Source: an uncultured Bacteroidales bacterium
GTDB taxonomy: Bacteria; Bacteroidota; Bacteroidia; Bacteroidales; UBA10428
NCBI GenBank assembly: GCA_964392505.1
Contig: CAYMQP010000003.1
Coordinates: 1 to 49,171 of the forward strand
DNA: 49,171 bases
Direction: 5' to 3'
Position numbers and translations under genes: made by a program. Positions 2,078 to 29,700 of the stretch are shown here, piece by piece; the stretch's first letter is position 1; every line of letters begins with the position of its first letter. The notes below the pieces were generated by a model, which ran no database searches, was not told the DNA's origin, and saw nothing but the letters and a program-made list of their open reading frames with translations.

Positions 2078-3652
2078 ATGCCAACACAACCAACTTATCC
2101 GGGTGTTTATATTGAAGAAATACCCAGCAGCGTACGTACCATTACAGGTGTCGCTACATCTATAACTGCTTTTATCGGACGAACATTACGAGGTCCGGTA
2201 AATAAACCTACATTAATCACCAGTTTTAGCAATTTCGAACGCCTGTTTGGTGGGCTCTGGACAAAAAGTATGATGTCTTATGCTGTAAAAGATTTCTATT
2301 TAAATGGTGGTAGTTCAGCAATAATAGTTCGTATTGAAAATGGTGCAAGTGCTGCAACCATATCATTGCCCACAATAGGGAGTCCCCTTGGTACTTTAAA
2401 CCTGGTCGCATCTAGCGCCGGTAGTTGGGGAAGCAAATTAAAAGTGCTTGTTAATCATGATACAAAAGATACGAGTGATACAAATCTTTTTAACATGATT
2501 ATTTACGAAGATATCGAAGGAGGATTAAAAGAAAGTTTTTTAAATGTTTCTGTCAGTGAAGACGATCCGCGCTATTTACCACGCGTTTTGAAACAAAGTT
2601 CATTGCTGGTAAGCGTAAGCGGCAGTATGCCTCAAAATCGTCCCGCCGAAACGGAAGCACCTGGCTCTCCTCCTTCCAGTTCATCAATAGATACGCCGGT
2701 TTCATCTGTCGGAGGAAGTGACGGAATCGATCTAACCAGCATAGAATATTTGGGAAGCGAAAGTGCAAAAACAGGAATATATGCTTTAAAGAAGGCCGAC
2801 CTGTTTAATTTATTATGTATTCCCCCGGCAACCCGAGATGGTAATACCGATAATTCAGTTTATCAAGCAGCAATGAAACTTTGCGCTGATGAAAGGGCTA
2901 TGTTAATTGTTGATTCACCGGCCGCATGGGGAGCATCTTCAGCTACAGCAGCATCCAATGCCAAGGCTGGATTAAGTACTTTGGGATTATCTGGTAATTA
3001 TGCAAGAAATGCAGCATTATACTTTCCGAGAGTTCTTATATCTGATCCTGAACGGGACAATCAGACGGAAACATTTGTACCATGTGGGATAGTTGCAGGA
3101 GTTATGTCAAGAACCGATAGAAACAGAGGCGTATGGAAAACACCGGCAGGCATGGATGCAGCATTAAATGGAATCCAGGGCTTACAGGTAAATCTTAATG
3201 ATGAAGAAAATGGCCGGCTAAATCCCCTTGGCATCAATTGTCTGAGGTCGTTTCCAATAACAGGCCTTGTAATATGGGGTGGCAGAACATTAAGAGGAGC
3301 CGATCAGTTAGCTGACGAATACAAATATGTTTCAGTTCGCCGAATGGCTCTCTTTATTGAAGAAAGTTTATACAGAGGTACTCAGTGGGCTGTTTTTGAA
3401 CCCAATGATGAGCCTCTATGGGCACAATTAAGGCTTAATGTAGGTGCATTCATGCATAACTTGTTCAGGCAGGGAGCATTTCAGGGATCAAGCCCGAAAG
3501 ATGCTTACCTGGTTAAATGTGATAGTGAAACCACTACACAAAATGATATTAACTTAGGAAAAGTTAACATACTGGTTGGTTTCGCACCTCTAAAACCGGC
3601 CGAATTCGTCTTTATTAAAATTCAACAACTTACAGGTAAAATAGAATCATAA
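2078..3652 (+). CDS. Contractile tail sheath protein (Afp2-4/Pvc2-4-like; the only sheath gene here)
   Basis: The N-terminus PTYPGVYIEEIPSSVRTITGVATSITAFIGRTLRGPVNKPTLITSFSNFERLFGG is the hallmark start of the phage tail sheath family. The C-terminal GINCLRSFP..G.VIWGGRTL block also fits, as does the position directly before the tube gene. Confidence 0.9.
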   Translation: MPTQPTYPGVYIEEIPSSVRTITGVATSITAFIGRTLRGPVNKPTLITSFSNFERLFGGLWTKSMMSYAVKDFYLNGGSSAIIVRIENGASAATISLPTIGSPLGTLNLVASSAGSWGSKLKVLVNHDTKDTSDTNLFNMIIYEDIEGGLKESFLNVSVSEDDPRYLPRVLKQSSLLVSVSGSMPQNRPAETEAPGSPPSSSSIDTPVSSVGGSDGIDLTSIEYLGSESAKTGIYALKKADLFNLLCIPPATRDGNTDNSVYQAAMKLCADERAMLIVDSPAAWGASSATAASNAKAGLSTLGLSGNYARNAALYFPRVLISDPERDNQTETFVPCGIVAGVMSRTDRNRGVWKTPAGMDAALNGIQGLQVNLNDEENGRLNPLGINCLRSFPITGLVIWGGRTLRGADQLADEYKYVSVRRMALFIEESLYRGTQWAVFEPNDEPLWAQLRLNVGAFMHNLFRQGAFQGSSPKDAYLVKCDSETTTQNDINLGKVNILVGFAPLKPAEFVFIKIQQLTGKIES

Positions 3653-3663
3653 ATTATAAAAAT

Positions 3664-4191
3664 ATGGCACAATTCACAGTAAATGCACAACGTTTTGACC
3701 CATATAAAAATTATAAATTCCGTATAAAATGGGATGGTAAATATGTGGCAGGAGTAAGTAAAATAGGAACACTTAAAAGATCTACCGAGGCGGTCGAGCA
3801 TCGTGAAGGTGGTGATCCGAGCACAGTACGTAAAAGTCCCGGACAAACAAAATACGAACCTATTACCCTTGAGCGTGGTGTAACGCATGACACCGAATTC
3901 GAAAAATGGGCCAACAAGGTTTGGAATTTTGGAAGTGGTCTTGGTTCGGAAGTTTCGTTAAAAGATTTTCGAAAAGACATTATCATTGAAATGTACAACG
4001 AAGCCGGTCAAAAAGCTATTGCTTACAAGGTCTATCGTTGCTGGGTTTCAGAATTTCAGGCATTACCGGAACTCGATGCTAGCGGAAATGCAGTAGCTAT
4101 AGAAACCCTTACCCTTCAGAATGAAGGATGGGAACGCGACTATGAAGTAACTGAACCTACCGAAGCTTCGTTCACTGAACCTGCCGATTAA
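3664..4191 (+). CDS. Inner tube protein (T4 gp19 / Afp1 / Pvc1-like)
   Basis: YKFRIKWDGKYVAGVSKIGTLKRSTEAVEHREGGDPSTVRKSPGQTKYEPITLERGVTHDTEFEKWA matches the conserved phage-tail-region tube pattern. It lies immediately after the sheath gene. Confidence 0.85.
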   Translation: MAQFTVNAQRFDPYKNYKFRIKWDGKYVAGVSKIGTLKRSTEAVEHREGGDPSTVRKSPGQTKYEPITLERGVTHDTEFEKWANKVWNFGSGLGSEVSLKDFRKDIIIEMYNEAGQKAIAYKVYRCWVSEFQALPELDASGNAVAIETLTLQNEGWERDYEVTEPTEASFTEPAD

Positions 4192-4253
4192 TTAGATTTC
4201 GATAATCAAGGTAAGATTTCGAATTCATTACTCATCTTTAAGAAATCTGATAG

Positions 4254-4994
4254 GTGTTAAAATTATCACAGGCTCAGTTATTGGATTTATGGGAAATTGG
4301 ACAAGTCCAGTCTCCCCTTCAGTTTTCTATGAATTTACTGTGTGAGGCATTACCCTCTCTTAATCTTGCACAGGCAGCATTGTTACCTGTTGGAAAACGC
4401 GATAGTATTTTATTAAAACTTCGGGAATCGATTTTTGGCCCGTATTTTTCTAATTTGGCTATCTGCCCATCCTGTGAAGAAAAAGTAGAATGGGAAATGA
4501 ATATCGATAATTTTATGCTTCCGGAATTATCCGAACTGATACTTAAAAAAACTTATGAATTAAAAAAAGGCAGTTATTTCATTACTTTTCGATTACCAAA
4601 TACACGTGATATAATTAATGCATCATCAGCAAATAATAAAAAAGATGTATATAGGTATATACTATCCGAATGTATTCATGATATTAAATATAAAAGAAAA
4701 TCTCTTGAAATTGAAAAATTGCCGGAAGAAGTTGTCAATTCAATATCAGAACAAATGAATATAGAGGATAAACATGCTGATATACAAATATCTTTAACTT
4801 GTCCGCATTGTTTATACATATGGAATATTACGTTTGATATTATCAGTTATTTATGGGATGAAACAAATGCGTGGGCCTATCATGTTTTAAGAGAAATTGG
4901 CATAATTGCTACAAATTTTGGATGGAGTGAGGAAGAGATTTTAAATTTATCGTCGATTCGCCGGCAAACATATCTTGAAATTTTAGAAGCATGA
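4254..4994 (+). CDS. eCIS accessory protein with a split CxxC...CxxC zinc-ribbon; function unknown (possible assembly factor)
   Basis: GTG start. Contains ICPSCEE and LTCPHCLY. Its stop overlaps the next start as ATGA. Placed between the tube and the putative tape measure. Confidence 0.6.
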   Translation: MLKLSQAQLLDLWEIGQVQSPLQFSMNLLCEALPSLNLAQAALLPVGKRDSILLKLRESIFGPYFSNLAICPSCEEKVEWEMNIDNFMLPELSELILKKTYELKKGSYFITFRLPNTRDIINASSANNKKDVYRYILSECIHDIKYKRKSLEIEKLPEEVVNSISEQMNIEDKHADIQISLTCPHCLYIWNITFDIISYLWDETNAWAYHVLREIGIIATNFGWSEEEILNLSSIRRQTYLEILEA

Positions 4995-6058
4995 GTAATT
5001 ATATTCAAAATATAATAATGCGGTATAAAGGGGAAAGTAATGTTGTAAAACCCAGAATTAATGGAATCTTTGAAAATCAGGTTAATTTTCCTTCTAATCG
5101 TTCAATAATAAAAAATGAAACAAATATTAATGAATATGCAAATAACAATAGTTTAGACGGATGGCAACATAAGTATTCAAATTCCAAAATATCAAATGAT
5201 AATTTTATTGATGAGAAAAAGAAAGACATAATTAACCAAAAAGATGAAATAAATCAGAAAGAAAATGATAAATCCCAGTTAACAGAAAAAAAGTATATAA
5301 ATGAGCAAAGTTTGAAGAAAAACATAGATTTACCTTCAGTTAATAATGATAAAAAGTTAAAATTAAAAAGGGAATCTCATAAAGATAAAAAAATTGATGT
5401 TAAACAAGAAAAGGAGATCGAATTTAATAATTATGTAACTGAAGAAATACAAGAACCATTTAATGCATCATCTGAACATCAATTTAAAAATTCAGATAAG
5501 TCCTTTATTATTAACGGAAGCAATATTAAAATAAACACAGATTCTGATATTTTAAGAAAGAAGACCGATGATAATCTTATACCGAAAACAATAAGCAAAT
5601 CTGATCTTAAAGAAAAAGACCGGGTAAAAAAGATTTCTAATTCTGATTTATCAGCAGAAAAAAAAGTCTTTCCGTCTTCCGTTCATCAAATCAAAATTCC
5701 TGAAAAAAATAAAACATTTCTTAAAATCAGGAGACCTTTCAAAAAAAAAGAAAATTATTTAAACGAAACAAATAAAAACCAAGGGATACACTCTCAGGAT
5801 AATAGTGTGACCGATTCGGATCAGAACTTTAAAAAAACAGAGATATCAACATTAGATTTATCCTCTGATTTGTCTGACATTAATCCTCTAAAAATTCCGA
5901 AAAAAAAAGTCAATACAGGAGACCATCAGATTATCAGGATAAACATTGGGAGAATTGAAATTAAAGCGGTTTCATCTGAAAAACAAATTGTAAACAAACC
6001 AGCTAAAGAATATCACCCGAAAATCTCCCTCAGTGATTACCTTGAAAATAGTAAATAA
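4991..6058 (+). CDS. Lys/Asn/Ser-rich low-complexity protein; putative tape measure (Afp14/Pvc14-like by position)
   Basis: 355 aa, strongly biased and probably disordered or helical. The only ordered-looking segment is the C-terminal HQIIRINIGRIEIKAV. Translationally coupled on both sides. The role is inferred from position only. Confidence 0.45.
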   Translation: MSNYIQNIIMRYKGESNVVKPRINGIFENQVNFPSNRSIIKNETNINEYANNNSLDGWQHKYSNSKISNDNFIDEKKKDIINQKDEINQKENDKSQLTEKKYINEQSLKKNIDLPSVNNDKKLKLKRESHKDKKIDVKQEKEIEFNNYVTEEIQEPFNASSEHQFKNSDKSFIINGSNIKINTDSDILRKKTDDNLIPKTISKSDLKEKDRVKKISNSDLSAEKKVFPSSVHQIKIPEKNKTFLKIRRPFKKKENYLNETNKNQGIHSQDNSVTDSDQNFKKTEISTLDLSSDLSDINPLKIPKKKVNTGDHQIIRINIGRIEIKAVSSEKQIVNKPAKEYHPKISLSDYLENSK

Positions 6059-6069
6059 TAAATTTTAGA

Positions 6070-7419
6070 ATGAGCACTGCACTTGCTATTGCATCTGTAA
6101 CCCACGTATTAAAAGATCTGTTAAACAATGGCCTAATTGATCAAAATGTATCAGGTGCAACAGGTGGAAATGTTAATGTAACCGCCCTTGCACCGGATCG
6201 TATTGATGTATCAGCCACTGGTCAAAGTCAGCTCAATCTTTTTATGTACCGTGTAAGTCCCAATTTAGGTTGGAATAATACAGAACTTCCCTCCCGCAAT
6301 GCTCAAGGCCAGAGATTAAGTAATCCTCCTTTAGCTCTGAATCTTCATTATTTGCTTACAGCATACGGTGCAAGCGAATTACATGCAGAAATTCTTCTGG
6401 GATATGGCATGCAATTGTTCCATGAAACACCTATACTGGATCGTGAAGCAATACGTTTTTCATTACTTCCGGCAAGTGCCGGATCTGCCGGAGGATTACC
6501 AAATGATTTGCAAGCACTGGCATCTTCCAATCTGGCCAATCAGTCCGAATTAATAAAAATTACACCGGAACAAATAAACACTGAAGAGATATCAAAACTT
6601 TGGGCTGCATTTCAGGCTAAGTATCGTCCCACAGCAGCTTATATAGTTACCGTGGTTTTAATCGAAAATGAATTATCAACCAAAGCATCATTGCCGGTTG
6701 CCGGAGAAGATAGTACCGGAAATGATGGCCGGAAAATTCATTCCTTTCCTTATAACCAAATTATAATTGAAAATTTACTATCCCGACAAGATCCAACCAG
6801 CCCCATTCTTAAAAACCAAAAGATCTTAAGCGGATACCAGGTGGTTGTCAAAGGAAAAAATCTGTATTCCAATAATGTTGAAGTTACATTAAATGATATT
6901 CCGGTACAAATATTGGATATTATTGAATATGAAGAAATAATTTTTACTATACCAAGCAACATATCAGCAGGTATTCAGGCTTTACAAATAGCACATAAAA
7001 CCTTAATAGGAAGTCCACCCCAATTGCTTCGATCAGCAGAATCAAATATTGAACCTTTTGTACTTTGTCCAAATATAATATCTGCTTCTGTTCTGAATCC
7101 TCACGTAAATAATAATTTAAGATCAGGGAATATTCAAATCCAGGTTAATCCGGCAATTGGTGAAAAGCAAAAAGTAATATTATTTTTAAATGAGTATAAT
7201 CCTGCGGCGGGAGCTGACCAGTTACGTGCTTATAGTTTCAATGCTCCATTGGTATCTCCTTTAAGCCCGCCGGTTTCATCCAACATCATTACAATTCCTT
7301 TTAAAGACGTAAGAGCTGGCACTTACATCTTAAGATTGCGCGTTGATGGTGCAGAAAGTCCTCTTGGAGCCCGCGATGCAACAGGATATTACTTCGAACC
7401 CAACATAACCATCAATTGA
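6070..7419 (+). CDS. DUF4255 (Pvc16/Afp16 N-terminal domain) tail cap/terminator protein with a C-terminal Ig-like (IPT/TIG-like) extension
   Basis: The N-terminus MSTALAIASVTHVLKDLLNNGL...QLNLFMYRVSPNLGWNN...PPLALNLHYLLTAYG is typical of DUF4255. The C-terminal half (YQVVVKGKNLYSNNVEVTLNDIPVQILDI...) looks like a beta-sandwich. Confidence 0.8.
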   Translation: MSTALAIASVTHVLKDLLNNGLIDQNVSGATGGNVNVTALAPDRIDVSATGQSQLNLFMYRVSPNLGWNNTELPSRNAQGQRLSNPPLALNLHYLLTAYGASELHAEILLGYGMQLFHETPILDREAIRFSLLPASAGSAGGLPNDLQALASSNLANQSELIKITPEQINTEEISKLWAAFQAKYRPTAAYIVTVVLIENELSTKASLPVAGEDSTGNDGRKIHSFPYNQIIIENLLSRQDPTSPILKNQKILSGYQVVVKGKNLYSNNVEVTLNDIPVQILDIIEYEEIIFTIPSNISAGIQALQIAHKTLIGSPPQLLRSAESNIEPFVLCPNIISASVLNPHVNNNLRSGNIQIQVNPAIGEKQKVILFLNEYNPAAGADQLRAYSFNAPLVSPLSPPVSSNIITIPFKDVRAGTYILRLRVDGAESPLGARDATGYYFEPNITIN

Positions 7420-18243: not shown

Positions 18244-18253
18244 TTTTAAAAAT

Positions 18254-18577: not shown

Positions 18578-18618
18578 ATAAAAATATCCACAGTAGTTTA
18601 TACCCAAAAACACCACAA

Positions 18619-18972: not shown

Positions 18973-18978
18973 ATATTT

Positions 18979-21576
18979 ATGATTTATAAGTGCTGTAGTG
19001 AAGAACGACGAAAACTGGTAAAAGAGCATCCGTGGCTTAACGGAATTGATTTTATAGAGGTTTTGGATAATCCGTCAGACCCACCTGAGGTTCGCCAGAC
19101 AAATCTGCTGGTTCATTTTATAAAAGATATTTCATCTTTAGCGCTTACAAAAGAGAATATTATTATTGAAGGTGGTGAACGAATTACTAATATTAAAGTG
19201 TTAGAAGTAAACACTTATTTGACAGAGTCTCCTCCAACATCACCTCCATTGTCATCACCAATAGGAGATTTGACAAAAATCCTGAAAGTAAAAGTTCATT
19301 CAACAGGCGATTTTTCAATTTATAAACTTCAACTTGTAAAAAATTTACAGCATAAAACACCACCGGACGGCTTCGATCCAGTGCTTTCATCAGTAGAATT
19401 TTCTTTTAAAGTATCTTGTCCAAACAATTTTGATTGTAAAACAACGAACGAGTGTACCACATTACCAGATGAAATTCCAGATATCAATTATCTGGCAAAA
19501 GATTATAATAGTTTTCGTCAGATAATGCTTGACAGGCTGTCGCTGTTGTTACCAGACTGGCAGGAAAGCAGTCCGGCAAATTTGGGCATAACCATTGTGG
19601 AATTACTTGCCTATGTTGGGGATCATCTGAGTTATCAACAGGATGCTATCGCGACAGAAGCTTATATCGGAACTGCAAGAAAAAGAATATCTGTAAAACG
19701 CCATGCAAGACTGGTTGATTATTACATGCATGACGGTTGTAATGCCAGGGCCTGGGTACAAATAGTTATTAATCCTGCAATAGACAACATCAACTTGCAA
19801 AGTGGGCAAGGTATGTCAAAAACGAAATTTGTTACTTACATTCCGGAAAAATCAACTGTTATCAATTATAATTCAGAAGATTATGAAGATATTCTGCATG
19901 AGGATGTTCAGTTTTTTGAACTTATGCATAACAGCAAACTTTATAGTGAACATAACACTATAAAATTTTATACCTGGGGTGAAAAAGAGTGTTGCCTGCC
20001 TAAAGGAGCCACTGCTGCAACACTTTTGGGAAATCTTAGTAATCTGAAAGTTGGAGATGTTCTGATATTTACTGAGGTGAAAGGATCTGAAACAGGAGCA
20101 ACCGAAGACGCTGACCCTTCACACAGACATGCTGTACGTCTGACAGAAATTAATTTATCCTTCGATCCTATCGGATCAACAGTCCTACCTTCTCCGCTTA
20201 GTTCACCACCGGGCGATGGTTCCATTCCGGTAACAGAAATAAAATGGCACATTGATGATGCTTTACCTTTCCCGCTATGCATATCTTCATGCAATGGAAA
20301 TGTTCATTACAATGATGTGAGTATTGCCCTCGGCAACATCGTTCTGGTTGATCATGGGCTAACCTGGGTGGATAGTAATAGAGCATACTCTTTAAAACCT
20401 TATGTTGTGCCCGCTGCTAATCCAATCCTTTCTCAAAAATCATTAACTGATTCAGAACCTTGTGAAACTCCTGAAAATAAGGTCTCATTACCTCGTTATC
20501 GTCCTGTTTTAACAGTTAGTCCTCTTACTCATACTGCTATTTACAAACATCAACAACCCTTCCCATCTGCAAAATCAGTTATGAAATGGCCTTTAACAGA
20601 GGTACGACCTGAAATAATTCTTATTCAGGAAAATGATAATTCCATATGGGAAGCTAAACGCGATTTATTGAATAGTAACCACGATTCCAAACATTTTGTG
20701 GTTGAAATAGAATCGGATGGAGTAGCACATTTACGATTCGGTAATAATTTTCATGGAGCCATGCCGATATCCGGTAAACGGTTTAAAGCGATATATCGAT
20801 TGGGAAATGGAACTATTGGAAACATTGGTGCAGAAAAACTGGCTCATATTGTAAGCAACGATTCTAATATTTACTCAAATTCTTCATATATAACTAAAAT
20901 CTGGAATCCGTTACCTGCAAAAGGTGGGCAGGAACCTGAAAATATTGAAGAAGTACGTCAAAAAGCAGGATATGCTTTTCAGCAACAGGAAAGAGCTGTT
21001 ACTCCTGAAGATTATGCCTATCTGGCAAAAAAATCGGATAGCAGTGTGCAACGGGCAACGGCGAATTATCGATGGACGGGAAGTTGGTATACATCTTTTG
21101 TAACCTTTGATCGCTTTGGAGGAAAAAAAGTAAATAAGACCTTTGAAGATAAAATGATAAAAAAACTGAATTTATATAGAATGGCCGGACAGGACCTTAA
21201 AATAGATAATCCTTTGTTTGTGCCACTTAAGATAGAAATGGAAGTATGCCTGGAAAAAAATTATTTCGCAAGCGATGTAAAAAAAGCAATTTTGTCTGTA
21301 TTCACTAATAGTATTATGAAAAATGGAAAGCCAGGATTATTTCATCCCGACAATTTTACTTTTGGACAAACTTTATATTTAAGTACTTACTATGCTGTTG
21401 CCCAGGCAATACCAGGAGTAAAATCTGTTAATATCACCAAATTTCAGCGCCAGGGTATAACAAATGATGAAGCCCTTGAAACTGGTAAACTTTCCTTAGG
21501 CCTCCTTGAAATTGCCCGTTTGGATAACGATCCGAATTTTAAGGAAAATGGTATTCTCAATATAATTATCAGATGA
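18979..21576 (+). CDS. Baseplate J-like wedge protein (Afp11-like)
   Basis: CCSEERRKLVKEHPWLNGIDFIEV at the N-terminus. The central DYNSFRQIMLDRLSLLLPDWQESSPANLGITIVELLAYVGDHLSYQQDAIATEAY is gpJ-like. Size and position also fit. Confidence 0.8.
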   Translation: MIYKCCSEERRKLVKEHPWLNGIDFIEVLDNPSDPPEVRQTNLLVHFIKDISSLALTKENIIIEGGERITNIKVLEVNTYLTESPPTSPPLSSPIGDLTKILKVKVHSTGDFSIYKLQLVKNLQHKTPPDGFDPVLSSVEFSFKVSCPNNFDCKTTNECTTLPDEIPDINYLAKDYNSFRQIMLDRLSLLLPDWQESSPANLGITIVELLAYVGDHLSYQQDAIATEAYIGTARKRISVKRHARLVDYYMHDGCNARAWVQIVINPAIDNINLQSGQGMSKTKFVTYIPEKSTVINYNSEDYEDILHEDVQFFELMHNSKLYSEHNTIKFYTWGEKECCLPKGATAATLLGNLSNLKVGDVLIFTEVKGSETGATEDADPSHRHAVRLTEINLSFDPIGSTVLPSPLSSPPGDGSIPVTEIKWHIDDALPFPLCISSCNGNVHYNDVSIALGNIVLVDHGLTWVDSNRAYSLKPYVVPAANPILSQKSLTDSEPCETPENKVSLPRYRPVLTVSPLTHTAIYKHQQPFPSAKSVMKWPLTEVRPEIILIQENDNSIWEAKRDLLNSNHDSKHFVVEIESDGVAHLRFGNNFHGAMPISGKRFKAIYRLGNGTIGNIGAEKLAHIVSNDSNIYSNSSYITKIWNPLPAKGGQEPENIEEVRQKAGYAFQQQERAVTPEDYAYLAKKSDSSVQRATANYRWTGSWYTSFVTFDRFGGKKVNKTFEDKMIKKLNLYRMAGQDLKIDNPLFVPLKIEMEVCLEKNYFASDVKKAILSVFTNSIMKNGKPGLFHPDNFTFGQTLYLSTYYAVAQAIPGVKSVNITKFQRQGITNDEALETGKLSLGLLEIARLDNDPNFKENGILNIIIR

Positions 21577-21590
21577 TATAAAAATAAAAA

Positions 21591-24287
21591 GTGACTGAAG
21601 AAAAAATAAACAATAATATGGATAATTGTGCCTGTTGTAAGGGCATATCTGTGAAAGTTCCCACAGAAATTTACAACCGGCCGGGACTTGAGAGCATTTC
21701 ATACCGTATCGGGAATCATGAATTATTTAAAAAAGCATTAATATCCCGGTTAACCGGATCAAGACAACATGTATTGAGAAAATTGACATCCAGGGATAGT
21801 AATGATTTTACAATAGCTTTATTTGATGCCTGGTCAGTAATGGTAGATGTTTTAACCTTTTACCAGGAGCGTATAGCTAATGAATCGTATTTAAGAACGT
21901 CTACCGAAAGATTGTCCATGCTTGAACTTGCTCGTTTATTAGGTTATGAATTAAATCCGGGAGTGGCAGCAAGCGTATACATCGCTTTCACCCTGGAAGA
22001 TACGCCTGGCGCACTTTCTTTTAACCAAAACATTACATCTGCCGAAATAATTCCCCCGATAACCCTGGAAGAAGGAATAAAACTGCAAAGTATTCCGGGA
22101 CCGGGAGAAAAAGCACAAACTTTTGAAACAATAGAAGAAATTGAAGCCCGGCCACAATGGAATGAGATTCAGCCCAGGTTATATCAGCCCCAATTGATTT
22201 CTTCAGGGAGTGATCTTATATACATTCGGGGAATTACCAGCGGGTGCAGCAAAGGCGATATTATTCTTCTTTATGAGAATAATACATACACACTTAAAAA
22301 AATCGTTGATATAGAAAAAAATACTGATGACGATACTACTTGTTTACTTTTTGATGAGGATGCTTCGGTACCGGCATATCATAGTCCAACCTCTTTAACC
22401 CAAGGAAAAATATCAGATTACGAAAATAATACAATATTAGACACAACTGTAGTTACAGATATCCTGTCGAAAGAATGGTATAATGATGACTTATCAGTTT
22501 TATTGAAAATTAAAAACTGGTCGGAAGATGATTTAGTTAAAAGTGTCGAAAACCTTTTATCAGATGATGACAATAATGAATCCGGTGCATATGTATATCG
22601 AAGGCAGGCGTTTGTTTTCGGACATAATGCCATGAAAATTACTTTTGATACTACAAATAATACACCATTAGCACAATCTCAATGGACCGAATGGGATTTA
22701 GATGAATCAGCAGGAAATATATACCTTGATGATTCTTACAAAGAAATATTACCGGATGGTTTTATATCTATTCAATCAGGAAATACTGATCTATCGAGTG
22801 TTAAAACATACTCCGTTCAGGATGTAATATTGCAGTCGAGAACGGAATATGGAATAAGTGCGAAAACAACATGGGTTGTTTTCGAACCATCCGAACAATG
22901 GTGGATATCAAATGAAAGCGGAACAGATAAATTATCTGATATTAGAAATACCGTTGTATTTGCACAAAGTGAAAAAATTGAACTGGCTGAAATTCCAATT
23001 ATCGATACTGTTGCTGGTGATACCATAACTTTAAACGGATTGTACCTGGGCATAAAAAAAGGGCAAAAAGTTATTGTTCATGGAGAAATTATTGATCCGG
23101 CAGGAGTAATATCCAGCGAACTGAAAACTATAAAGCAGGTGGTTATTAAAAAAGGATATACAGAGATTCAGTTCAGCAAATCACTGTACTATGAATATAT
23201 CAGGGAAGAACTTGTTATTTACGCAAATGTTGCGTTAGCTACCCATGGAGAAACTGTTGAAGAAATTCTTGGTAGTGGTAATGCAGCAAAAACATTTCAA
23301 AAATTCACTTTAAAAAATACACTGCTCACTTTTGTTAGCGCTTCCACACCAAGTGGCACCAAATCAACTTTAGAAATCCGGGTTAATGATATTTTATGGA
23401 AAAATGTTAATACATTTTACGGATATGGGCCTGATGATCGCATTTATGTTACCCGCATTGATAATGAGGGATATACCACAGTTATTTTTGGTGATGGAGT
23501 TACAGGGGCACGATTGCCCGGAGGTCAGAATAATATTAAAGCAAAATACAGAAAGGGATTGGGATTAGACGGAATATTGAAGAAAGATCAACTGTCACAA
23601 CTTATGACCAAACCATTGGGCGTTAAAAGTGCAACAAATCCCATTGAATCTTCAGGCGGTGCTGATCAGGAAAACCTGGTCAATGCTAAAAAAAATGCTG
23701 CCTTAAGTGTACTGACACTCGATCGTATAGTTTCTTTACAGGATTTTGAGGATTTTGCCCGTGCTTTTGCTGGTATTGAAAAATCCCTTGCCGTTTGGAG
23801 CTGGAGACATGGAAGAAGATGTATTTTCATTACGGTTGCAGGACCAAAAGGAGTCTTAATTAAAAAGGACAGCACAGTTTATGGCAATCTAATAAAAGCT
23901 CTAATGAATTCAAGTAATCCTAATACCCATGTTATTGTTGAATCATATCGGCCAAGATATTTTACATTATCTGCAAAAATCAAAATAGATCCGGAATATG
24001 AAGCAAATTTGGTAATTACTGAAATAGAATCAGAATTGCGTTCAGAGTTTGCATTTGATAAACGTGAATTTGGACAACCAGTGATATTAAGCGAAATTGT
24101 ATCGGTAATCCATAATATATCCGGTGTTACAGCCATCGATATGGATGAATTATATTATTCAGATGAAACGGCTTCACTTAACCAGGAACTAAAGGCCTCA
24201 ATGCCCCTTCCGGGGGATGAAACCACCCTTTCGGCAGAATTACTGACCCTTGATTCACGACCTGTTAACCTGAGTCAGATGTTATGA
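21591..24287 (+). CDS. P2 gpI-like baseplate/tail protein (Afp12-like)
   Basis: NCACCKG...IYNRPGLESISYRIGNHELFKKALISRL...FDAWSVMVDVLTFYQERIANESYLRTSTE matches the conserved N-terminus of eCIS Afp12-type proteins as I recall it. GTG start at 21591, with an alternative ATG at 21618. Confidence 0.7.
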   Translation: MTEEKINNNMDNCACCKGISVKVPTEIYNRPGLESISYRIGNHELFKKALISRLTGSRQHVLRKLTSRDSNDFTIALFDAWSVMVDVLTFYQERIANESYLRTSTERLSMLELARLLGYELNPGVAASVYIAFTLEDTPGALSFNQNITSAEIIPPITLEEGIKLQSIPGPGEKAQTFETIEEIEARPQWNEIQPRLYQPQLISSGSDLIYIRGITSGCSKGDIILLYENNTYTLKKIVDIEKNTDDDTTCLLFDEDASVPAYHSPTSLTQGKISDYENNTILDTTVVTDILSKEWYNDDLSVLLKIKNWSEDDLVKSVENLLSDDDNNESGAYVYRRQAFVFGHNAMKITFDTTNNTPLAQSQWTEWDLDESAGNIYLDDSYKEILPDGFISIQSGNTDLSSVKTYSVQDVILQSRTEYGISAKTTWVVFEPSEQWWISNESGTDKLSDIRNTVVFAQSEKIELAEIPIIDTVAGDTITLNGLYLGIKKGQKVIVHGEIIDPAGVISSELKTIKQVVIKKGYTEIQFSKSLYYEYIREELVIYANVALATHGETVEEILGSGNAAKTFQKFTLKNTLLTFVSASTPSGTKSTLEIRVNDILWKNVNTFYGYGPDDRIYVTRIDNEGYTTVIFGDGVTGARLPGGQNNIKAKYRKGLGLDGILKKDQLSQLMTKPLGVKSATNPIESSGGADQENLVNAKKNAALSVLTLDRIVSLQDFEDFARAFAGIEKSLAVWSWRHGRRCIFITVAGPKGVLIKKDSTVYGNLIKALMNSSNPNTHVIVESYRPRYFTLSAKIKIDPEYEANLVITEIESELRSEFAFDKREFGQPVILSEIVSVIHNISGVTAIDMDELYYSDETASLNQELKASMPLPGDETTLSAELLTLDSRPVNLSQML

Positions 24288-26476
24288 GTTTCGATATAGA
24301 ACAATTATACAAACTTTTACCGGCCTATCATAGGGAACGTGATACCAAGCTTGGTAACGAACTGCTAACTTATTATCAGAAATCGGTTTTACAGCAATTA
24401 ACTGAAAATTACAATAATCTTTCAGATAAAGAAAGTGCCGAAGCATTGCGTTTAAAAAAACTTATTGATGAAACTGAAAGAGGTCCCCTTAAAGCAATTC
24501 TTTCATTATTTGCTGAACAAATTGCCATGCTTGAAGACAATTTGGAGCAACTATATGATGATCAGTTTATAGAAACCTGTGCAGAGTGGATTGTTCCATA
24601 CATAGGTGACTTAACCGGAACACGAGGACTACTCGATTTTCCGAATATGACGTTCAGTCAGAGAGCCCAGGTTGCCAATACTATTGCATATCGAAGAAGA
24701 AAAGGAACAGCAGCAGTAATTGAACAATTGGCTTGCGATGTAACCGGATGGGTTGCGAACGTTGTTGAGTATTTTCAGTTAATAGCTACAACCCAATATT
24801 TGAATCATCTTCGCTTAAACAATCTGGTTACATTAAATCTAAGAGACAATGATAGCCTGGAAAAACTACATTCACCATTCGATAATGTAAGCAGAAATGT
24901 TGATGTGAGAAATATTCAAAATAAACGGGGAAAATATAACATACCTAATTTAGGAATTTTTTTATGGCGGAATACAAGTTTTTCATATACTCAATCACCG
25001 GCCTGTAAAATGGATGACCGAAGGTACATGTTTGATATAATAGGTTATGAAGTCCCTTTATATAATAACCCTGTTACAGAAGAAAAAATAACCGACCTGG
25101 CCAAACCTGAAAATGTTCCTCACCGGATTAGTCGATATTTATTGTATAAATATTTCGATAAATATTATGGTAAAGGAAAAAGCATATTACTATACAAAGA
25201 TGGTAATGAAATTATCCCGGATTCAAACACAACCTTGTCTGACTTATTTACTGTATGTGATTTAAGTGATAAAAAAGATATAAATGACGTTATTATCGGC
25301 TGGAATAATATGCCACAGCACAAGATTGCAATTGATCCTGAATTAGGCAGAATAGCCTTTCCTGCTTCTGCGACACCTCCCACAGAGGTTAAAACAACAT
25401 ACTATCGCGGTGCATTGGCAGAAATCGGTGGAGGCGAATATGGAAGATCAGATACATTTCAGGTTAATACTGGTAAAATTGTTAAAGTGCCTAATAATGA
25501 AATAACTGTACAGGCAGCGGTAAATGCGTTGGTTGCCGAGGGTGGAATAGTTGAGGTCCAAAATAATGAATGTTACAATGAAAATCTGGTAATTGATATC
25601 CCTGCAGGAAAAAAAATAGAATTAAGAGCAGCCGATAAAAAAAGACCCGTTCTGTTTTTAAACGGAAGTTCCATTGTGAGTGGAGGAGAAAATGCCGAAT
25701 TCAGTATAAATGGTTTTCTTGTTGCCGGAGGTAATTTCAGGGTACCTGAAAAAAACAACCTTAATATTGATAATAAACTTAATAAATTCACGATTCAGCA
25801 TGCAACAATCCGAAGCGAAAAGGAACACAATGTTTTATCACCGCCATTACAAAGCGGTCAACCTGTAATCATTGTCGAATGCTCGGATACATCTTTAGTA
25901 ATAAGTAACTCCGTTTTGTGCAGTATTCGTTGTATTGACACAGCTAATATTAAAATAAACGATAGTATTATTGATGCCGCTTCTTCAGTAAACGAGGCAA
26001 TCTCCGGTATTGAAAACCAGAAACCGTCTGCCATCCTTGAAATTAAAAATTCAACAATTATAGGAAAAGTCCATACCCTAATGATGAAAATGGTTTCAAA
26101 TACCATTATTATGGCGGATCTGACGAATTTCGATAGTTGGGAATATCCTGTTTGGACTGACAGAATACAAAAAGGCTGCATTAGGTTTTCATATGTTTCT
26201 ACCGGTTCTAAAATTCCAAAACCCTATCATTGTGTTCCTTCAGGTTCCGATGAAGACAGCAATATAAAACCAGTATTTAAATCATTACAATTTGGTAGTT
26301 CGGGATATTGTCAGCTCAGTTCCAAATGTTCATCGAAAATTATGGAAGGTGCAGATGATAGTTCCGAAATGGGTGTTTTTCACGATATATATCAATCCCA
26401 GCGTATTAAAAACCTAAATGCGCGATTAGAAGAATATCTTCGCTTTGGCCTTGAAGCGGGAATATTCCTGGTTTGA
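24284..26476 (+). CDS. eCIS distal baseplate-associated protein with a probable right-handed beta-helix region; function unknown
   Basis: ATGA coupling to the gpI-like gene. Repetitive short strands such as NSVLCSIRCIDTANIKINDSIIDAAS / IKNSTIIGKVHTLMMKMVSNTIIMAD suggest a beta-helix. Confidence 0.55.
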   Translation: MSFDIEQLYKLLPAYHRERDTKLGNELLTYYQKSVLQQLTENYNNLSDKESAEALRLKKLIDETERGPLKAILSLFAEQIAMLEDNLEQLYDDQFIETCAEWIVPYIGDLTGTRGLLDFPNMTFSQRAQVANTIAYRRRKGTAAVIEQLACDVTGWVANVVEYFQLIATTQYLNHLRLNNLVTLNLRDNDSLEKLHSPFDNVSRNVDVRNIQNKRGKYNIPNLGIFLWRNTSFSYTQSPACKMDDRRYMFDIIGYEVPLYNNPVTEEKITDLAKPENVPHRISRYLLYKYFDKYYGKGKSILLYKDGNEIIPDSNTTLSDLFTVCDLSDKKDINDVIIGWNNMPQHKIAIDPELGRIAFPASATPPTEVKTTYYRGALAEIGGGEYGRSDTFQVNTGKIVKVPNNEITVQAAVNALVAEGGIVEVQNNECYNENLVIDIPAGKKIELRAADKKRPVLFLNGSSIVSGGENAEFSINGFLVAGGNFRVPEKNNLNIDNKLNKFTIQHATIRSEKEHNVLSPPLQSGQPVIIVECSDTSLVISNSVLCSIRCIDTANIKINDSIIDAASSVNEAISGIENQKPSAILEIKNSTIIGKVHTLMMKMVSNTIIMADLTNFDSWEYPVWTDRIQKGCIRFSYVSTGSKIPKPYHCVPSGSDEDSNIKPVFKSLQFGSSGYCQLSSKCSSKIMEGADDSSEMGVFHDIYQSQRIKNLNARLEEYLRFGLEAGIFLV

Positions 26477-26722
26477 TAAAGTTAAGAAACTATTTACTGA
26501 GAAAGCGGTTATAATTTGAGCCTAATAGGTTCATTGAATCAGTAATTACAAAAAAATGGAATAATTGAATGTTGGGATCTTATATAAAAACTTCGTGGTT
26601 TACTACTTCCATTATTCCAACATTATTAAATTAAAGGCAAAGCTTACAGCAGATCACCACGGCTATAATGACGTGGAATTTCAAATATTATCAAAATTGT
26701 TAACCTTTTAAACCCAAAATAA

Positions 26723-29700
26723 ATGTCAGGCGATTATTCACGTAAAACGTTCGATAATAAGAAACATTACAGTACTGTTCAACAACAACAGGGACGGGCA
26801 TTACTCGATTCAGATTGGAATGAATATTCTGATATTTTAAAATACAGGAGTCAGACCACAATTCAGGATATAATAGGTCCATCAGGTGTTCCAAAGGATG
26901 AAAATGGTTTTCAAATCAGTATTTCTCCCAATGGTAATGATTTAAACATCACACCTGGTGAAATTTATATAGAAGGCATTTTATGTGAACTGGATGAAAA
27001 TACATTACCAGTTTCTTATTTAAAGCAACCTCATTACCCCAATCCTGATATATCTTACTTTATTACAAGTCCATTGATAAGCCCGCCGGCAAGTCCCCCA
27101 TTAAGTCCACCTTCAAGCCCGCCGGCAAACTATTCATCAATAAATATAAAAGATGGGATATTTATTATATATCTTGACGCCTGGGAAAGAGAAATCAATT
27201 ATCTGGATGATAAATTAATAAAAGAAATTGCTCTGGGTGATGCCGATTCGACTACAAGATTGCAGGTAGTATGGCAGATCAAATTATTGGAGGTAACACC
27301 GATTCAGGGATTAGAGTCAATATGTGAAGGTCAATATATTGAATGGATTGAAAAAACAACTCCTCCTACCGGAAAATTAAATGCACGAACTGTTGAGGAT
27401 CAAAATCAGGAAGGACCATGTATAATTCCCCCAACCACAGGTTATCGCAGACTTGAAAACCAACTATACAGAATTGAGATACACAAAGGAGGAACCAGAG
27501 ATCATGCAACTATTAAATGGTCGCGCGACAATGCTTCCGTGCAGACCAAGATTATTAAAATTGACGGAACAATAATTAGCGTAGCTGATTTGGGTAAAGA
27601 TGAAGTTCTGGGATTTGCAGCTGATCAATGGGTGGAAATAATTGATGAAGAAGCCGCATTAAATTGCTCATCAAATTCTTTATTTCAAATTGATAAAATC
27701 ACACCGAAAACAAACGAAATCACATTAAAAAGTTCTGCGGATTCATTTAAGAATAAGAAAAATCTTAAACTCTGCCGGTGGGACCAGTCAGGAATATTAG
27801 CCACAGCCGACGGAATGACTATGAAAACAACCTGGATGAAAATTGAAGATGGAATTGAAGTGTGTTTTAGCGATGGTAATTATTGTGACGGTGATTATTG
27901 GCTGATACCTGCTCGTACTGCAACCGGTGAAATAGAATGGCCCCCTTATAAAATTCCAAATCTTAATCCCGAAGAACAATTGCCATCAGGAATCAAACAT
28001 CATTTTTGTAAACTGGCAATACTGGAAGTTCAAAACGGGCAGGGCAAGCTAACCGATTGCCGTATGATTTTTCCGGAATTAACAAATCTTACAGCAGAAG
28101 ATATCAAATATGATCATAGCTACTGCAACATCAACAAAGCCGATAATGTACAGGAAGCTATTGACATGCTGTGCGCTTTAAATGACATGCGCGATCATAA
28201 TAAATTTATTCATGGTTATGGAGTGGTTTGTGGAATGAAGGTAATTTGCGGTGGAATTCGTACCGATGTAATGGTGGAAAAAGGTTATGCACTTGATTGT
28301 GAAGGAAATGTTATCCAGGTTAAATCTCAAAATGAAGTGCCTTATAATATTGTAGCCCAGGCTGCTGCCGCAAATCTTCTCGATAATAATGGAGATGGTG
28401 AAGTAGCTTTATATATAACAGGATGTACTTCAACCGGCCCTGATTTGTTGATAGAAGAATTTATTAAAAAAGATTTTTGGGATGAGGTACTTGAGGGCAC
28501 TTTATTGAAAAACTTTTACGACGGATGTATAAAAAATCTTTTTGACTTCCTAAAAAGAAATTTTCCAATAAATTTTTCCGATACTGTTCCGGTTCCTCTT
28601 TCTCAAAGAAGATTTACTGCTCTGACTAACCTGTTATTTCAATTTGTAATGTCTGCCAGCGGACCATATGCTTTTATGTCAGGGATTAACGTTCAGAATC
28701 GTGATACCGATATTGATTGCAGCGATGAAGAAGAGATAGGAAAATATGAAGATCATATCTTATGGTGTTTGTATAAAGAATTAAAGGTTCTGCTAAATAG
28801 TCAAACATTTTGTGGTATGTTCGATGGTGATGCTCTGTTTCCTTCTTATGAAATATCCGAAGGGCTGGATACGATTTTTGGACCGGTATTTCGCCTGCAT
28901 CATAAATTTAAACTCAATCCAAAAGGAAGTTACGGATATACTAGTGGTTTAGATAATAAAATATACGTTTACAATCTCGATAACAAAGAATTTATTCAGG
29001 CAGTGGTATTTCCTGCCAGCGCAAAAATATTAGTACAGGATTTTGTAATAAACTCAGCTGGTACTGAATTATATGCACTTGGTTTATTGGATGATAGGGA
29101 TTCGGTTTTTGCCAAGGCAGAAATTGATACAGATGGAAAATTAACCTGGGAAAATTCTTCGGTAAGATGTGGAGAAAGGTACAAAAGCTTGGCTATTAGT
29201 CCTTCAGACAGAATTTATACTATTCAGATTGCAACCGGTTTATATGAAGTTACCAATATAGGGCTTCCATCTTTCTCACTAACACAACAAAGAGCATTTA
29301 ATGCTACCGGAAAGCTTATTATTTCGGAAGATGGTGCCTATGCATTCGCGGCAGAATATCAAACAAATAATAACGAATCAGCTGCATTTACCCATATCAC
29401 GCGGTTTGATTTAGCTAATAATGCTATTCCTCCAGATTCATATCATTACCTGGGTTATGATTTTAGCGACGACATTGCTCATGTTGACGATATTATATAT
29501 ATCACAGGTTATGTACAGGCTAATCCCGGACAAAGGGTTCTCGGAGGATATGATTTAACTACCGGTAATCCTGCTTTTCCAACCATTGATTTGGAAAATA
29601 GCTGGTTGATACGATTGGCTCCATTCACCGATATAAACGGCGATGAATTAATGCTCGTTTCCCTGGCAGATAAATTTAAAATTATAACAGTTGAATTAAA

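Follow-up and report, generated by a model that had tools for sequence, protein, structure and literature searches.

Ser-Pro-Pro repeats in eCIS proteins of an uncultured Bacteroidales bacterium as candidate sites of Ser-O-glycosylation

Described systems with related features

Mycobacteriophage virion proteins are glycosylated by phage-encoded glycosyltransferases (Freeman 2023, as cited in PMC11256854 and PMC12582341). In Che8 and its relatives, as these two papers present them, cytoplasmic glycosyltransferases are encoded beside the structural genes, and a glycan shield is proposed on exposed structural proteins. Both features recur in our proposal for the eCIS locus studied here, which lies in a 49,171-nucleotide stretch of DNA (analysed as a whole and hereafter called the window) from an uncultured Bacteroidales bacterium. 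Mycobacteriophages, however, are true phages of Actinobacteria with virion glycans, whereas the window encodes a tail-like injection system whose glycosylation is predicted from sequence; the motifs of the window are internal loops in five proteins, and the candidate enzyme is a GT2-GT2-methyltransferase (MT) fusion. In chlorovirus PBCV-1, the GT-GT-methyltransferase A064R extends the capsid glycan and methylates its terminal rhamnose (PMC7826918). Like A064R, the window enzyme unites a methyltransferase with two transferase domains in a single soluble polypeptide. A064R modifies a structural protein of the element that encodes it, and the same is proposed for the window enzyme. The substrates of A064R, by contrast, are N-linked glycans of a eukaryotic virus. 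No sequence relationship between the two enzymes was detected, the PDB search with the window enzyme giving other GT2 proteins (5HEA GalT1, chondroitin synthase, and others), and the resemblance is architectural only.

Flagellins and serine-rich repeat adhesins (such as Fap1) are modified in the cytoplasm, ahead of export or assembly, by soluble GT-A/GT2-type enzymes acting on Ser residues of exposed segments that are extended and repetitive, as is proposed here, and the enzymes are encoded in linkage with their substrates, as in the window. The window substrates differ in being phage-tail-like structural proteins, with a short SPPx unit in place of long SxSx repeats. General O-glycosylation is widespread in the phylum Bacteroidota, where it is periplasmic and uses the sequon D-(S/T)-(A/I/L/V/M/T); loci related to that of the window are likewise present in Bacteroidota genomes (Chitinophagaceae, Danxiaibacter, and Hanamia). 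This sequon was rejected for the SPP sites, as no SPP of the window follows Asp, and Pro is barred at +1.

SPP patches in five proteins of the window

Of the 18 eCIS proteins encoded in the window, five contain SPP, with eleven tripeptides in total; all remaining window ORFs of at least 100 aa are free of it. The sequence-only reading had listed six Ser/Pro patches in these five proteins, and all were present in the places it gave; one cap SPP, GSPPQLL at nt 7012, was missing from its list. The sheath protein (524 aa; 2078..3652, +; Pfam Phage_sheath_1 and Phage_sheath_1C) carries APGSPPSSSSIDTPVSS at aa 194-210 (nt 2657-2707), where the inserted surface domain meets the conserved core of the sheath. 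The cap protein (449 aa; 6070..7419, +; Pfam Pvc16_N) contains the SPP at aa 315 (nt 7012-7020) and PLVSPLSPPVSS at aa 393-404 (nt 7246-7281). Two patches were located in the gpJ-like baseplate wedge protein (865 aa; 18979..21576, +; weak Baseplate_J match), namely ESPPTSPPLSSP at aa 83-94 (nt 19225-19260) and LPSPLSSPPGDGS at aa 403-415 (nt 20185-20223). The beta-helix-like distal protein (730 aa; 24284..26476, +) has one VLSPPLQS, with its SPP at nt 25838-25846, and the DUF6519 distal protein (1154 aa; 26723..30187, +; Pfam DUF6519) has TSPLISPPASPPLSPPSSPPANYS at aa 115-138 (nt 27065-27136), a tandem of four SPPx units. The patches of the cap and beta-helix proteins proved weaker than the sequence-only reading had presented them, being single SPP or PP sites of loosely conserved position. 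The consensus motif is (S-P-P-x)n, usually with at least two units and with a fixed four-residue period.

As a genome-wide control, a stand-in proteome of 2,932 non-overlapping ORFs of at least 150 aa was employed. SPP occurred at 1.20 per 1000 residues within the eCIS and at 0.063 outside, and the 11 tripeptides observed compare with an expectation of 0.58 at that outside rate (P ~3e-11, or ~3e-6 with the seven patches counted as single events), in agreement with the earlier claim of an excess over chance. SPP was present in 5 of 18 eCIS proteins and 69 of 2,914 others (P = 6e-5); the pattern SP.{1,3}SPP was seen seven times in the eCIS and not once in the other 1.13 million residues; and at least three SP inside 14 residues were found, genome-wide, in the gpJ and DUF6519 proteins only. 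SPP is thus not equally frequent in unrelated proteins, and the enrichment is eCIS-specific. The DNA strings that the patches had been noted to share do exist, but 13-mers that recur in the window number 80, and codon choice differs from patch to patch; the strings are therefore uninformative by-products of coding. The difference in codons points to selection on the peptide.

The best PDB match of the sheath was Cis2 of Streptomyces coelicolor (E 7e-78, full length), in which surface domain 3 is not resolved. The S. coelicolor system (CIS-Sc; PDB 8BKY, 8BL4, 9GTP, and 9GTS) bears this surface third domain on its sheath (PMC10066040). Like CIS-Sc, the window encodes a single sheath protein, and its patch occupies the end of the insert equivalent to the CIS-Sc third domain, at the edge of surface domain 3 when mapped onto this closest solved sheath; unlike the window, Cis2 has at the aligned position of the pairwise alignment a Pro/Ala-rich segment without SPP. 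In the AF2 model, the patch forms short strands with pLDDT 72-84 and, as modelled, is not a free disordered tail. We infer that the sheath patch is exposed on the particle surface and, by analogy with eCIS of solved structure, the five SPP-bearing proteins would all be exposed parts of the particle.

Motif and enzyme gene in related loci

The candidate modifying enzyme is encoded at 31422..33656 (+; 742-744 aa) and consists, according to Pfam, of a GT2 domain, a second GT-A-like domain, and Methyltransf_24. No hydrophobic or membrane segment was found in it, suggesting a soluble protein. Its motifs DDG.D, WDDDDWY, VDSDQL, E.GS..G..T, and DGLHDY are kept at 97% or more among 119 homologues, so that its DxD and SAM-type catalytic motifs are retained. 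All eight homologues that were looked up belong to eCIS loci, among which at least four layouts are represented. The best PDB match of the N-terminal GT2 domain was GalT1 (5HEA; E 8e-8, a weak and generic GT2 match), which we take to belong to the Fap1 pathway, and the MT domain matched the rhamnosyl O-methyltransferase/CmcI family below threshold (E 0.0063; 16.7 bits, cut-off 23.2). A second methyltransferase (417 aa; 34573-35826, +; Pfam Methyltransf_24 and DUF8361) and a further GT2 (255 aa; 35811-36578, +; Pfam) are probably additional parts of a glycan module. Homologues of the 417-aa protein recur in five loci, all with the enzyme gene (L022, L028, L031, L136, and L139), and GT and MT proteins were the only accessory enzymes recurring with the motif in the related loci examined.

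SPP was present at the loop of the window's sheath patch in 62 of 121 sheath homologues (identity 64-80%), with sequences of the ASPPTSPP or SSPPSSPP type recurring there; the patches are therefore not inserts private to the lineage of this genome, as had been considered. Their assignment to loops holds, and these loops vary by insertion and deletion. Relatives have (S-P-P-x)n motifs in these five protein families, often in the same loops and sometimes in different ones. In the cap, SPP occurs close to the two loops in relatives that have the enzyme gene (aa 333 in G440 and G442, aa 408 in G442, and aa 315 in G445), and relatives without it have none. The loop of the first gpJ patch is a Ser-Pro repeat in six enzyme-gene loci (L020, L021, L022, L025, L028, and L030), and that of the second in L020, L021, L022, and L028; most loci that lack the gene have a short loop or a gap at both places. 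The DUF6519 loop holds a Ser-Pro repeat insert of roughly 10-45 residues in enzyme-gene relatives and is short or absent in others. Ser-Pro repeats at the gpJ and DUF6519 loops are found in Chitinophagaceae-type relatives, and the position of the beta-helix SPP is not conserved. Other lineages carry the motif at non-homologous sites (sheath aa 93, 136, and 212-224; gpJ aa 332-383; DUF6519 aa 74, 164-175, and 678). Many SPP sites are inserted within conserved domains, in their loops, and not between domains, and the motif is kept over GC contents from 37% to 60%.

To examine co-occurrence, 37 related loci could be judged for the motif and for a GT/MT gene after that of DUF6519, the last structural gene. 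The motif was present in 14 of 16 loci with the GT/MT gene and 1 of 21 without (Fisher 2.7e-7), at densities of 1.15 and 0.016 per 1000 residues, respectively, and in sheaths from 7 of 7 enzyme loci compared with 0 of 4 loci lacking it. Pfam revealed no GT in the downstream ORFs of loci scored as enzyme-lacking, and the enzyme was absent genome-wide from four genomes so scored, in a search with a working positive control; in metagenome contigs so scored, a GT gene may lie elsewhere, e.g. upstream of the sheath. In the outer set of proteins (gpJ, gpI, beta-helix, DUF6519, sheath, and cap) of enzyme loci, 69 SPP were observed against 9.4 expected from composition (7.3-fold), with no enrichment of TPP (1.1-fold), APP (1.0-fold), or GPP (0.6-fold) and with the same S + P content in loci with and without the enzyme. 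Pro/Thr/Ser-rich interdomain linkers (Pfam PT repeat, cellulase-type) are, like the window patches, short, Pro-rich, exposed, and variable in length, but the SPP motif shows this lack of Thr enrichment and a fixed four-residue period. Locus proteins beyond the outer set held one SPP against 7.9 expected. SPP counts with the enzyme gene were 14 against 1.6 expected in gpJ, 14 against 2.1 in the beta-helix family, and 38 against 3.4 in DUF6519; without the gene they were 3 against 4.3 and 1 against 4.9 in the latter two.

The association is confounded by ancestry. Only four to five independent pairs in the DUF6519 tree differ in the enzyme gene, the motif following in two to three and opposing in none, and with so few pairs a sign test is unable to reach significance; with the AlgoCIS-type contrast added by hand, about five of five pairs agree (p = 0.06). 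AlgoCIS-type sheaths adjoining the enzyme have inserted Ser/Pro-rich loops that are absent from 50-54% identical homologues of enzyme-lacking genomes, and AlgoCIS-type loci hold one degenerate site each, or none (L140 sheath). The motif is nearly absent from equally close enzyme-lacking loci (L023, L024, L043, and L055). In three enzyme loci (L079, L080, and L142), the part of the locus that was seen showed no motif, and L137, where the enzyme is present, has a single SPP.

Candidate functions of the motif

Judged from these comparisons, the SPP patches appear to be repeated instances of one surface motif, (S-P-P-x)n, that is under selection and specific for Ser. The reading we favour, to which we would give about an even chance, is that exposed particle proteins are O-glycosylated at Ser, with SPPx as the acceptor motif. 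SPPx could instead be structural or adhesive in itself, serving as a rigid spacer in polyproline-II conformation, as a surface loop resistant to proteases, or as a ligand of the target surface or of a particle component, while the GT-GT-MT enzyme co-travels by ancestry and acts on cargo, envelope, or self-protection. This possibility, which we consider less likely, agrees with the insertion and deletion of motif loops, partly at domain junctions, with the extended strands modelled at moderate to high confidence in the sheath patch, with the motif-free enzyme loci, and with the small number of independent contrasts. However, the enrichment is strictly for SPP, and there would be no need for Ser in a mere spacer or linker. 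The motif also originated in loops that are not homologous, in separate lineages that all have the enzyme, and is nearly lacking in the four equally close loci without it.

Another bacterial modification or processing of the motif, such as phosphorylation of its Ser by a kinase of the bacterium, hydroxylation of its prolines, or X-Pro peptidase trimming, seems improbable: although S-P is a minimal kinase motif, and an X-Pro dipeptidyl peptidase is encoded about 2 kb beyond the locus (38751-40619), the peptidase lies outside the conserved locus in relatives, kinases and prolyl hydroxylases were found neither in the window nor in the related loci examined, and only GT/MT enzymes recur with the motif. 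Eukaryotes are targets of some eCIS, and Ser-Pro-rich sequences look like eukaryotic motifs, so that mimicry in or on the target (proline-directed phosphorylation, SH3/WW ligands, or extensin-like SPPPP) was also considered; we rate it lower still. Phosphorylation in the target, as the sequence-only reading had suggested, is unlikely because sheath, cap, and baseplate proteins of known eCIS do not enter it, and its extensin-like alternative is contradicted by the absence of SPPP or longer runs from the five window proteins; PPxY and PxxP patterns are absent from the consensus, and mimicry leaves the co-occurrence with the GT/MT gene unexplained. Strongly disfavoured, and the least probable of all, is a functionless product of chance, composition, or slippage. 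The DUF6519 patch is indeed a short tandem repeat, and loops tolerate low-complexity inserts, but the excess of SPP, the equal S + P content of loci with and without the motif, its differing codons, and its retention across the GC range all speak against this.

The proposed O-glycosylation by the adjacent GT/MT enzymes thus gained comparative support from co-occurrence, Ser specificity, and an eCIS-linked enzyme family, although the fusion enzyme could act on another substrate, e.g. cargo or cell envelope. Under Ser-O-glycosylation, the soluble GT2-GT2-methyltransferase from the end of the locus would glycosylate the SPP-bearing proteins, with the Ser of SPP as the putative attachment site and with the second methyltransferase and extra GT2 assisting. 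The reaction would take place in the cytoplasm, the site of particle assembly, and the particle would gain a coat of short, partly methylated glycans. If so, such a coat may serve in shielding, stability, solubility, or target adhesion.

The eCIS cluster and its SPP patches

The window carries a complete co-directional eCIS cluster (2078-31236), in which the sheath gene is followed by genes for a tube protein, a T4_baseplate-like zinc protein, a low-complexity protein, a Pvc16-type cap, an AAA+ ATPase, three eCIS_core (DUF4157) cargo-type proteins, a second tube-like protein, two small proteins, a VgrG-like spike, a PAAR-like tip, gp25, a gpJ-like wedge (865 aa), a gpI-like protein (898 aa), a beta-helix-like protein (730 aa), a DUF6519 protein (1154 aa) and a 332-aa protein. 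Immediately past these structural genes comes a fusion of GT2, GT-A-like and Methyltransf_24 domains (31422-33656; the GT-GT-MT enzyme), and beyond it a small membrane protein, a second methyltransferase (34573-35826) and a GT2 (35811-36578). As expected of an eCIS of the Afp/PVC/AlgoCIS/CIS-Sc kind, Pfam recognises each of its parts: sheath, inner tube, Pvc16 cap, AAA+ ATPase, spike with a VgrG-like OB domain, PAAR-like tip, gp25 and gpJ-like wedge. The ORFs of the 49-kb window include no capsid, terminase or portal gene, so the cluster is, within this stretch, not a prophage. Among solved relatives the nearest is CIS-Sc, which is cytoplasmic (PMC10066040). A PAS-LuxR gene (1099-1779) lies upstream of the sheath gene, and in AlgoCIS-type loci a LuxR-type (GerE) regulator immediately precedes the eCIS, or the GT gene that leads it (L135, 8484-9119; L140, 2006-2680). 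Between 10001 and 12000, within the first eCIS_core cargo gene, GC content rises to as much as 0.50 compared with 0.37 for the genome, which suggests a foreign C-terminal module.

The Ser/Pro-rich patches that the sequence-only reading had listed were all found in the sheath, cap, gpJ-like, beta-helix and DUF6519 proteins, and a further SPP was detected in the cap (aa 315). The source genome (4.14 Mb, 515 contigs, 37% GC) was represented by a stand-in proteome of 2,932 long non-overlapping ORFs. SPP occurred 11 times in 9,136 eCIS residues and 71 times in 1.128 million residues elsewhere (expected inside, 0.58; P ~3e-11), and the excess persisted when the 7 patches were taken as single events (P ~3e-6). 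SPP was carried by 5 of 18 eCIS proteins compared with 69 of 2,914 others (P = 6e-5). In the same ORF-based set, the doubled form SP-x(1-3)-SPP was present seven times in the eCIS locus and nowhere else, and three SP dipeptides within 14 residues were confined to gpJ and DUF6519. Because of this excess, the possibility that SPP is equally frequent in unrelated proteins of the genome could be set aside.

DNA strings shared between patches do exist. AGCCCGCCGG occurs six times genome-wide, of which the three copies within the locus all encode S-P-P, and a 13-mer common to the sheath and cap genes encodes P-V-S-S in both. They are a by-product: SPP codons differ among the patches (TCT CCT CCT, AGC CCG CCG, TCA CCT CCA, AGT CCC CCA and others), and recurring 13-mers are common in the window (80 different, compared with ~51 after shuffling). 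The varied codons indicate that the likeness is kept at the peptide level and does not stem from recent DNA copying; together with the frequent 13-mer repeats, they led us to reject an origin at the DNA level by gene conversion, a small mobile insert or the shared strings.

Conserved loops and a moving motif in related loci

Close homologues of the sheath number in the thousands and span several phyla; when the best 120 (64-80% identical) are aligned, length varies in a stretch flanked by conserved R-P and G-x-D-G motifs. SPP falls exactly in this stretch in 62 of 121 sheaths, most commonly as ASPPTSPP, SSPPSSPP or ESPPSSPV, which contradicts the suggestion that the patches are lineage-specific inserts; more distant homologues have a short gap-filled loop there. 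The GSPPSSSS of the window sheath is a slightly decayed version. Orthologues are nearly absent from genomes of the same genus or phylum (3 of 401 in the phylum); the locus is rare in its own phylum, and its relatives are spread across other taxa. A scan of viral contigs gave one distant locus, which was left out of the analysis.

Ten related genomic loci (from Puia, Danxiaibacter, Hanamia, Chitinophagaceae MAGs and others) were compared for the remaining patches. gpJ patch 1 (aa 83-94 in the window protein) reads FSPPVPSPP, ESPPASPLSPPP or TSPLSPPASPP in relatives, gpJ patch 2 (aa 403-415) reads ASPVASPLGSPLSP or SSPASPLSS, and the DUF6519 patch (aa 115-138) reads ASPPDSPLSPPASPLSPPESPLSPP or a similar repeat. 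All three are present together in L021, L022 and L028 and jointly missing in five other loci; L020 has both gpJ patches and its sequence ends before DUF6519, and of the three patches L025 lacks only gpJ patch 2. The cap and beta-helix sites are weaker, with a single SPP or PP, and the same families still carry SPP in relatives. In a second enzyme-bearing lineage (L026 and L027), the window-type loops lack the motif, which appears elsewhere in the same proteins: LSPPTKPPPFSPPLP and LSPPSSPS in the sheath, SPYSPLSPPES and GSPLSPPEL in gpJ, and ISPLASPLE and TSPPSSPV in DUF6519. The Danxiaibacter sheath has ASPLSPPAPDP in yet another loop. L044 and L045 have at least five TSPPxSPP sites, and their close relative L043, with no downstream GT gene, has lost the DUF6519 and gpJ patch-1 motifs. 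That the motif turns up repeatedly in loops that are not homologous speaks for selection acting on it directly.

To examine co-occurrence with the enzyme gene, 80 further metagenome loci around DUF6519 were kept of more than 575 found, and 8 genomic loci were completed from the sheath to well beyond the last structural gene; 37 loci, including the window, were assessable, having at least 4 kb after the DUF6519 gene. As in cytoplasmic O-glycosylation systems with a linked GT, a glycosyl/methyltransferase gene directly follows the distal structural genes, after DUF6519, in 16 of the 37; it is mostly a homologue of the window fusion, or of its first GT2 domain within other multi-domain GT/MT proteins. 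None was present in the other 21, where Pfam searches of downstream same-strand ORFs gave no GT; metagenome contigs among them were scored downstream, and may have a GT gene upstream. Whole-genome searches found no enzyme homologue in four of these genomes (G446, G447, G076 and G433), and the same search, as a positive control, returned one copy, at the locus, in five enzyme-bearing genomes.

The strict motif SP[PLVIA]-x(0-2)-SP[PLVIA] was used together with plain SPP relative to composition; a looser SP-x-SP count was dropped since it catches unrelated SPS-type sites in L081 and L083. The strict motif was present in 14/16 loci with the enzyme and 1/21 without (Fisher 2.7e-7, with few independent contrasts in the DUF6519 tree), at densities of 1.15 and 0.016 per 1000 residues, respectively. 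Sheaths contained SPP or SPxSP in 7/7 loci with the enzyme and 0/4 without. The DUF6519 tree offers only 4-5 independent pairs differing in the enzyme gene, with the motif concordant in 2-3 and discordant in none, too few for the test to reach significance; adding the AlgoCIS-type contrast by hand gives ~5/5 concordant (p = 0.06). Three loci (L079, L080 and L142) have the enzyme and no motif in the available part.

The enrichment is specific to one tripeptide and one set of proteins. With expected counts calculated from each protein's own composition, the outer set (gpJ, gpI, beta-helix, DUF6519, sheath and cap) of enzyme-bearing loci contains 69 SPP compared with 9.4 expected (7.3x), whereas that of loci without the enzyme contains 11 compared with 18.7 (0.6x), Ser and Pro contents being equal between the two groups. 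TPP (1.1x), APP (1.0x), GPP (0.6x) and PSP (1.2x) show no comparable rise in enzyme-bearing loci, where the SPP excess is carried by gpJ (14 vs. 1.6 expected), the beta-helix protein (14 vs. 2.1) and DUF6519 (38 vs. 3.4); the gpI-like protein was rejected as a carrier (2 vs. 1.5). The 91 SPP sites in relatives show a 4-residue period, with S at -4 and +4 and P at -3, -2, +5 and +6, and with S, A, G, E or L between units. By analogy with the solved Afp, PVC and AlgoCIS structures, for which the arrangement is established, the carrier families would lie on the particle's exterior and the families without the motif in its interior, a split that was first suggested by the window itself and then reproduced in relatives. 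The other proteins of enzyme-bearing loci (tube, spike, PAAR, gp25, p376, ATPase, cargo and the enzyme itself) have 1 SPP compared with 7.9 expected (Poisson 0.003), and those of loci without the enzyme 5 compared with 7.5; the depletion might reflect avoidance of the motif in non-target proteins, the numbers being small.

The enzyme family and exposure of the sheath patch

More than 3,000 homologues match the 744-aa enzyme at E up to 1e-30; the top 120 show 49-60% identity, and almost all of them are ~740 aa in length. All eight that were looked up lie in eCIS loci. Two have the window-type layout: in L136 the enzyme gene immediately follows DUF6519 and a p332-like gene, and L139, whose visible part contains only cargo-type and methyltransferase genes, is probably of the same type. 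Four (L135, L138, L140 and L141) have an AlgoCIS-type layout, with the enzyme as the first gene, just before the cap gene, and two (L137 and L142) have other layouts. An inserted Ser/Pro-rich loop is present in three of the four AlgoCIS-type sheaths next to the enzyme (PSSPPASPV, PSSPPSAPE and SPIEPSPV); the L140 sheath has a Pro-rich insert at the same place, matching neither SPP nor SPxSP. Homologues 50-54% identical to these sheaths, from three genomes of the window's own genus, lack the insert, and the genomes themselves lack the enzyme.

The catalytic motifs are intact: across 119 homologues, DDG.D, WDDDDWY and VDSDQL (DxD-type, from two GT-A domains) and the SAM-type motifs all reach at least 97% conservation. 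The enzyme has no hydrophobic segment (maximum hydropathy 0.99), as expected of a soluble protein. In the PDB it best matches generic GT2 enzymes, with GalT1 (5HEA) at the top, and a protein with a CmcI-like methyltransferase domain. Chlorovirus PBCV-1 A064R, also a GT-GT-MT enzyme (PMC7826918), resembles it in domain order and layout and in nothing more; querying PDB sequences with the 744-aa enzyme (E up to 0.01) did not recover A064R.

The second methyltransferase of the window (34573-35826), a 417-aa Methyltransf_24 and DUF8361 protein, recurs in enzyme-bearing eCIS loci, with homologues in L136 and L139 and in L022, L028 and L031 (the latter three 54-59% identical). In L040 (7367-13114), GT2-GT2-MT is replaced by a 1128-aa Glyco_trans_1_2/3-keto-disaccharide-hydrolase-like/Methyltransf_24 protein (a GT1-type/MT24 fusion), followed by an NB-ARC protein with PT repeats, and the glycan module thus seems to be swappable. 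The enzyme homologues of the second lineage look damaged: that of L026 (genome G444, C11:14929-16521) has one in-frame TGA, and that of L027 (G445, C1:147382-148083) has TAG and TAA stops and a 246-aa open frame. Both loci have few SP motifs (2-3), and enzyme and motif may be decaying together. Cultured strains that carry the locus with its enzyme gene include Danxiaibacter flavus SYSU DXS3180 (L022), Niastella soli, Algoriphagus antarcticus, Rubrolithibacter danxiaensis and, with the broken-looking copy of L027, Hanamia caeni BO-59.

Among solved sheaths, S. coelicolor Cis2 is the nearest (E 7e-78), with only ~350-370 of its 534 residues modelled; according to the authors, domain 3 is located at the surface of the sheath, and its flexibility kept it from being resolved (PMC10066040). 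The window patch lies at the C-terminal end of an insert equivalent to this domain. In an AF2 model of the sheath built from 117 sequences (mean pLDDT 78.8), the patch has a pLDDT of 72-84 with short strands, and is therefore predicted to be an ordered extended segment, not a free tail. From homology, together with the tolerance of insertions and deletions at this place, we infer that the patch is exposed. One 748-aa sheath homologue (P0097) has two extra ~100-residue inserts, one on each side of the Ser/Pro loop, which marks this part of the sheath surface as a hot spot where domains are inserted.

A candidate acceptor motif for O-glycosylation

We propose, at roughly even confidence, that SPPx is a Ser-O-glycosylation acceptor motif on exposed particle proteins, modified by the locus-encoded GT-GT-MT enzyme; the additional methyltransferase and GT2 would shape a short methylated glycan. 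The idea that the adjacent GT/MT enzymes glycosylate the patches thus gains a comparative link (14/16 vs. 1/21 loci; 7.3x), but one with few independent contrasts, a scarcity that also leaves room for the main rival, a structural or adhesive motif merely sharing ancestry with the enzyme gene. We consider this rival less likely, given the Ser-specific enrichment and the reappearance of the motif at new loops in lineages with the enzyme. Another modification at the motif we consider improbable, the only accessory enzymes that recur with it in the loci examined being GT and MT proteins. Chance is the least likely, given 11 occurrences for 0.58 expected.

Comparison with known Pro-rich sequences and glycosylation systems bears on the same question. 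Eukaryotic mimicry would draw on the Ser/Pro richness of the patches, yet extensins and other hydroxyproline-rich glycoproteins have Ser followed by 3-5 Pro (SPPPP); with no SPPP in the five window proteins, extensin-like mimicry finds no footing, and mimicry in general is very improbable. Interdomain linkers mix Pro with Thr/Ser, without fixed residue or period, between domains; the SPP motif differs in its preference for Ser (TPP 1.1x vs. SPP 7.3x), in a dominant SP-to-SP spacing of 4 residues, and in the insertion of the gpJ and DUF6519 patches inside conserved blocks. General O-glycosylation in Bacteroidota uses the sequon D-(S/T)-(A/I/L/V/M/T) on periplasm-exposed proteins. By contrast, DSPP is absent from the window, position -1 is led by L, S, A, G and T at the 91 sites in relatives, the motif by definition places Pro at +1, and the carrier proteins lack signal peptide-like N-termini. 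A precedent for glycosylated particles is provided by mycobacteriophage virions modified by phage-encoded GTs (Freeman et al. 2023, as summarised in PMC11256854); a second, alike in layout only, is the A064R enzyme of PBCV-1. The literature searched contained no report of glycosylated eCIS particles or of an acceptor motif for them.

The broader form of the glycosylation proposal, which we put a little short of even, is that particles of a widespread eCIS group carry a coat of short methylated O-glycans, attached to the Ser of SPPx by a soluble GT2-GT2-methyltransferase specific to eCIS loci. This would constitute a new cytoplasmic system with a portable sequon, gained and lost at surface loops together with its enzyme. 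eCIS-type particles are under development as protein-delivery tools, and a surface glycan could affect particle stability, aggregation, target binding and antibody recognition. If true, the proposal would account for a conserved and unexplained accessory gene family (the >3,000 homologues at E up to 1e-30), would predict which particle surfaces are decorated, and would clearly exemplify the co-evolution of an enzyme with its acceptor motif over many structural proteins.
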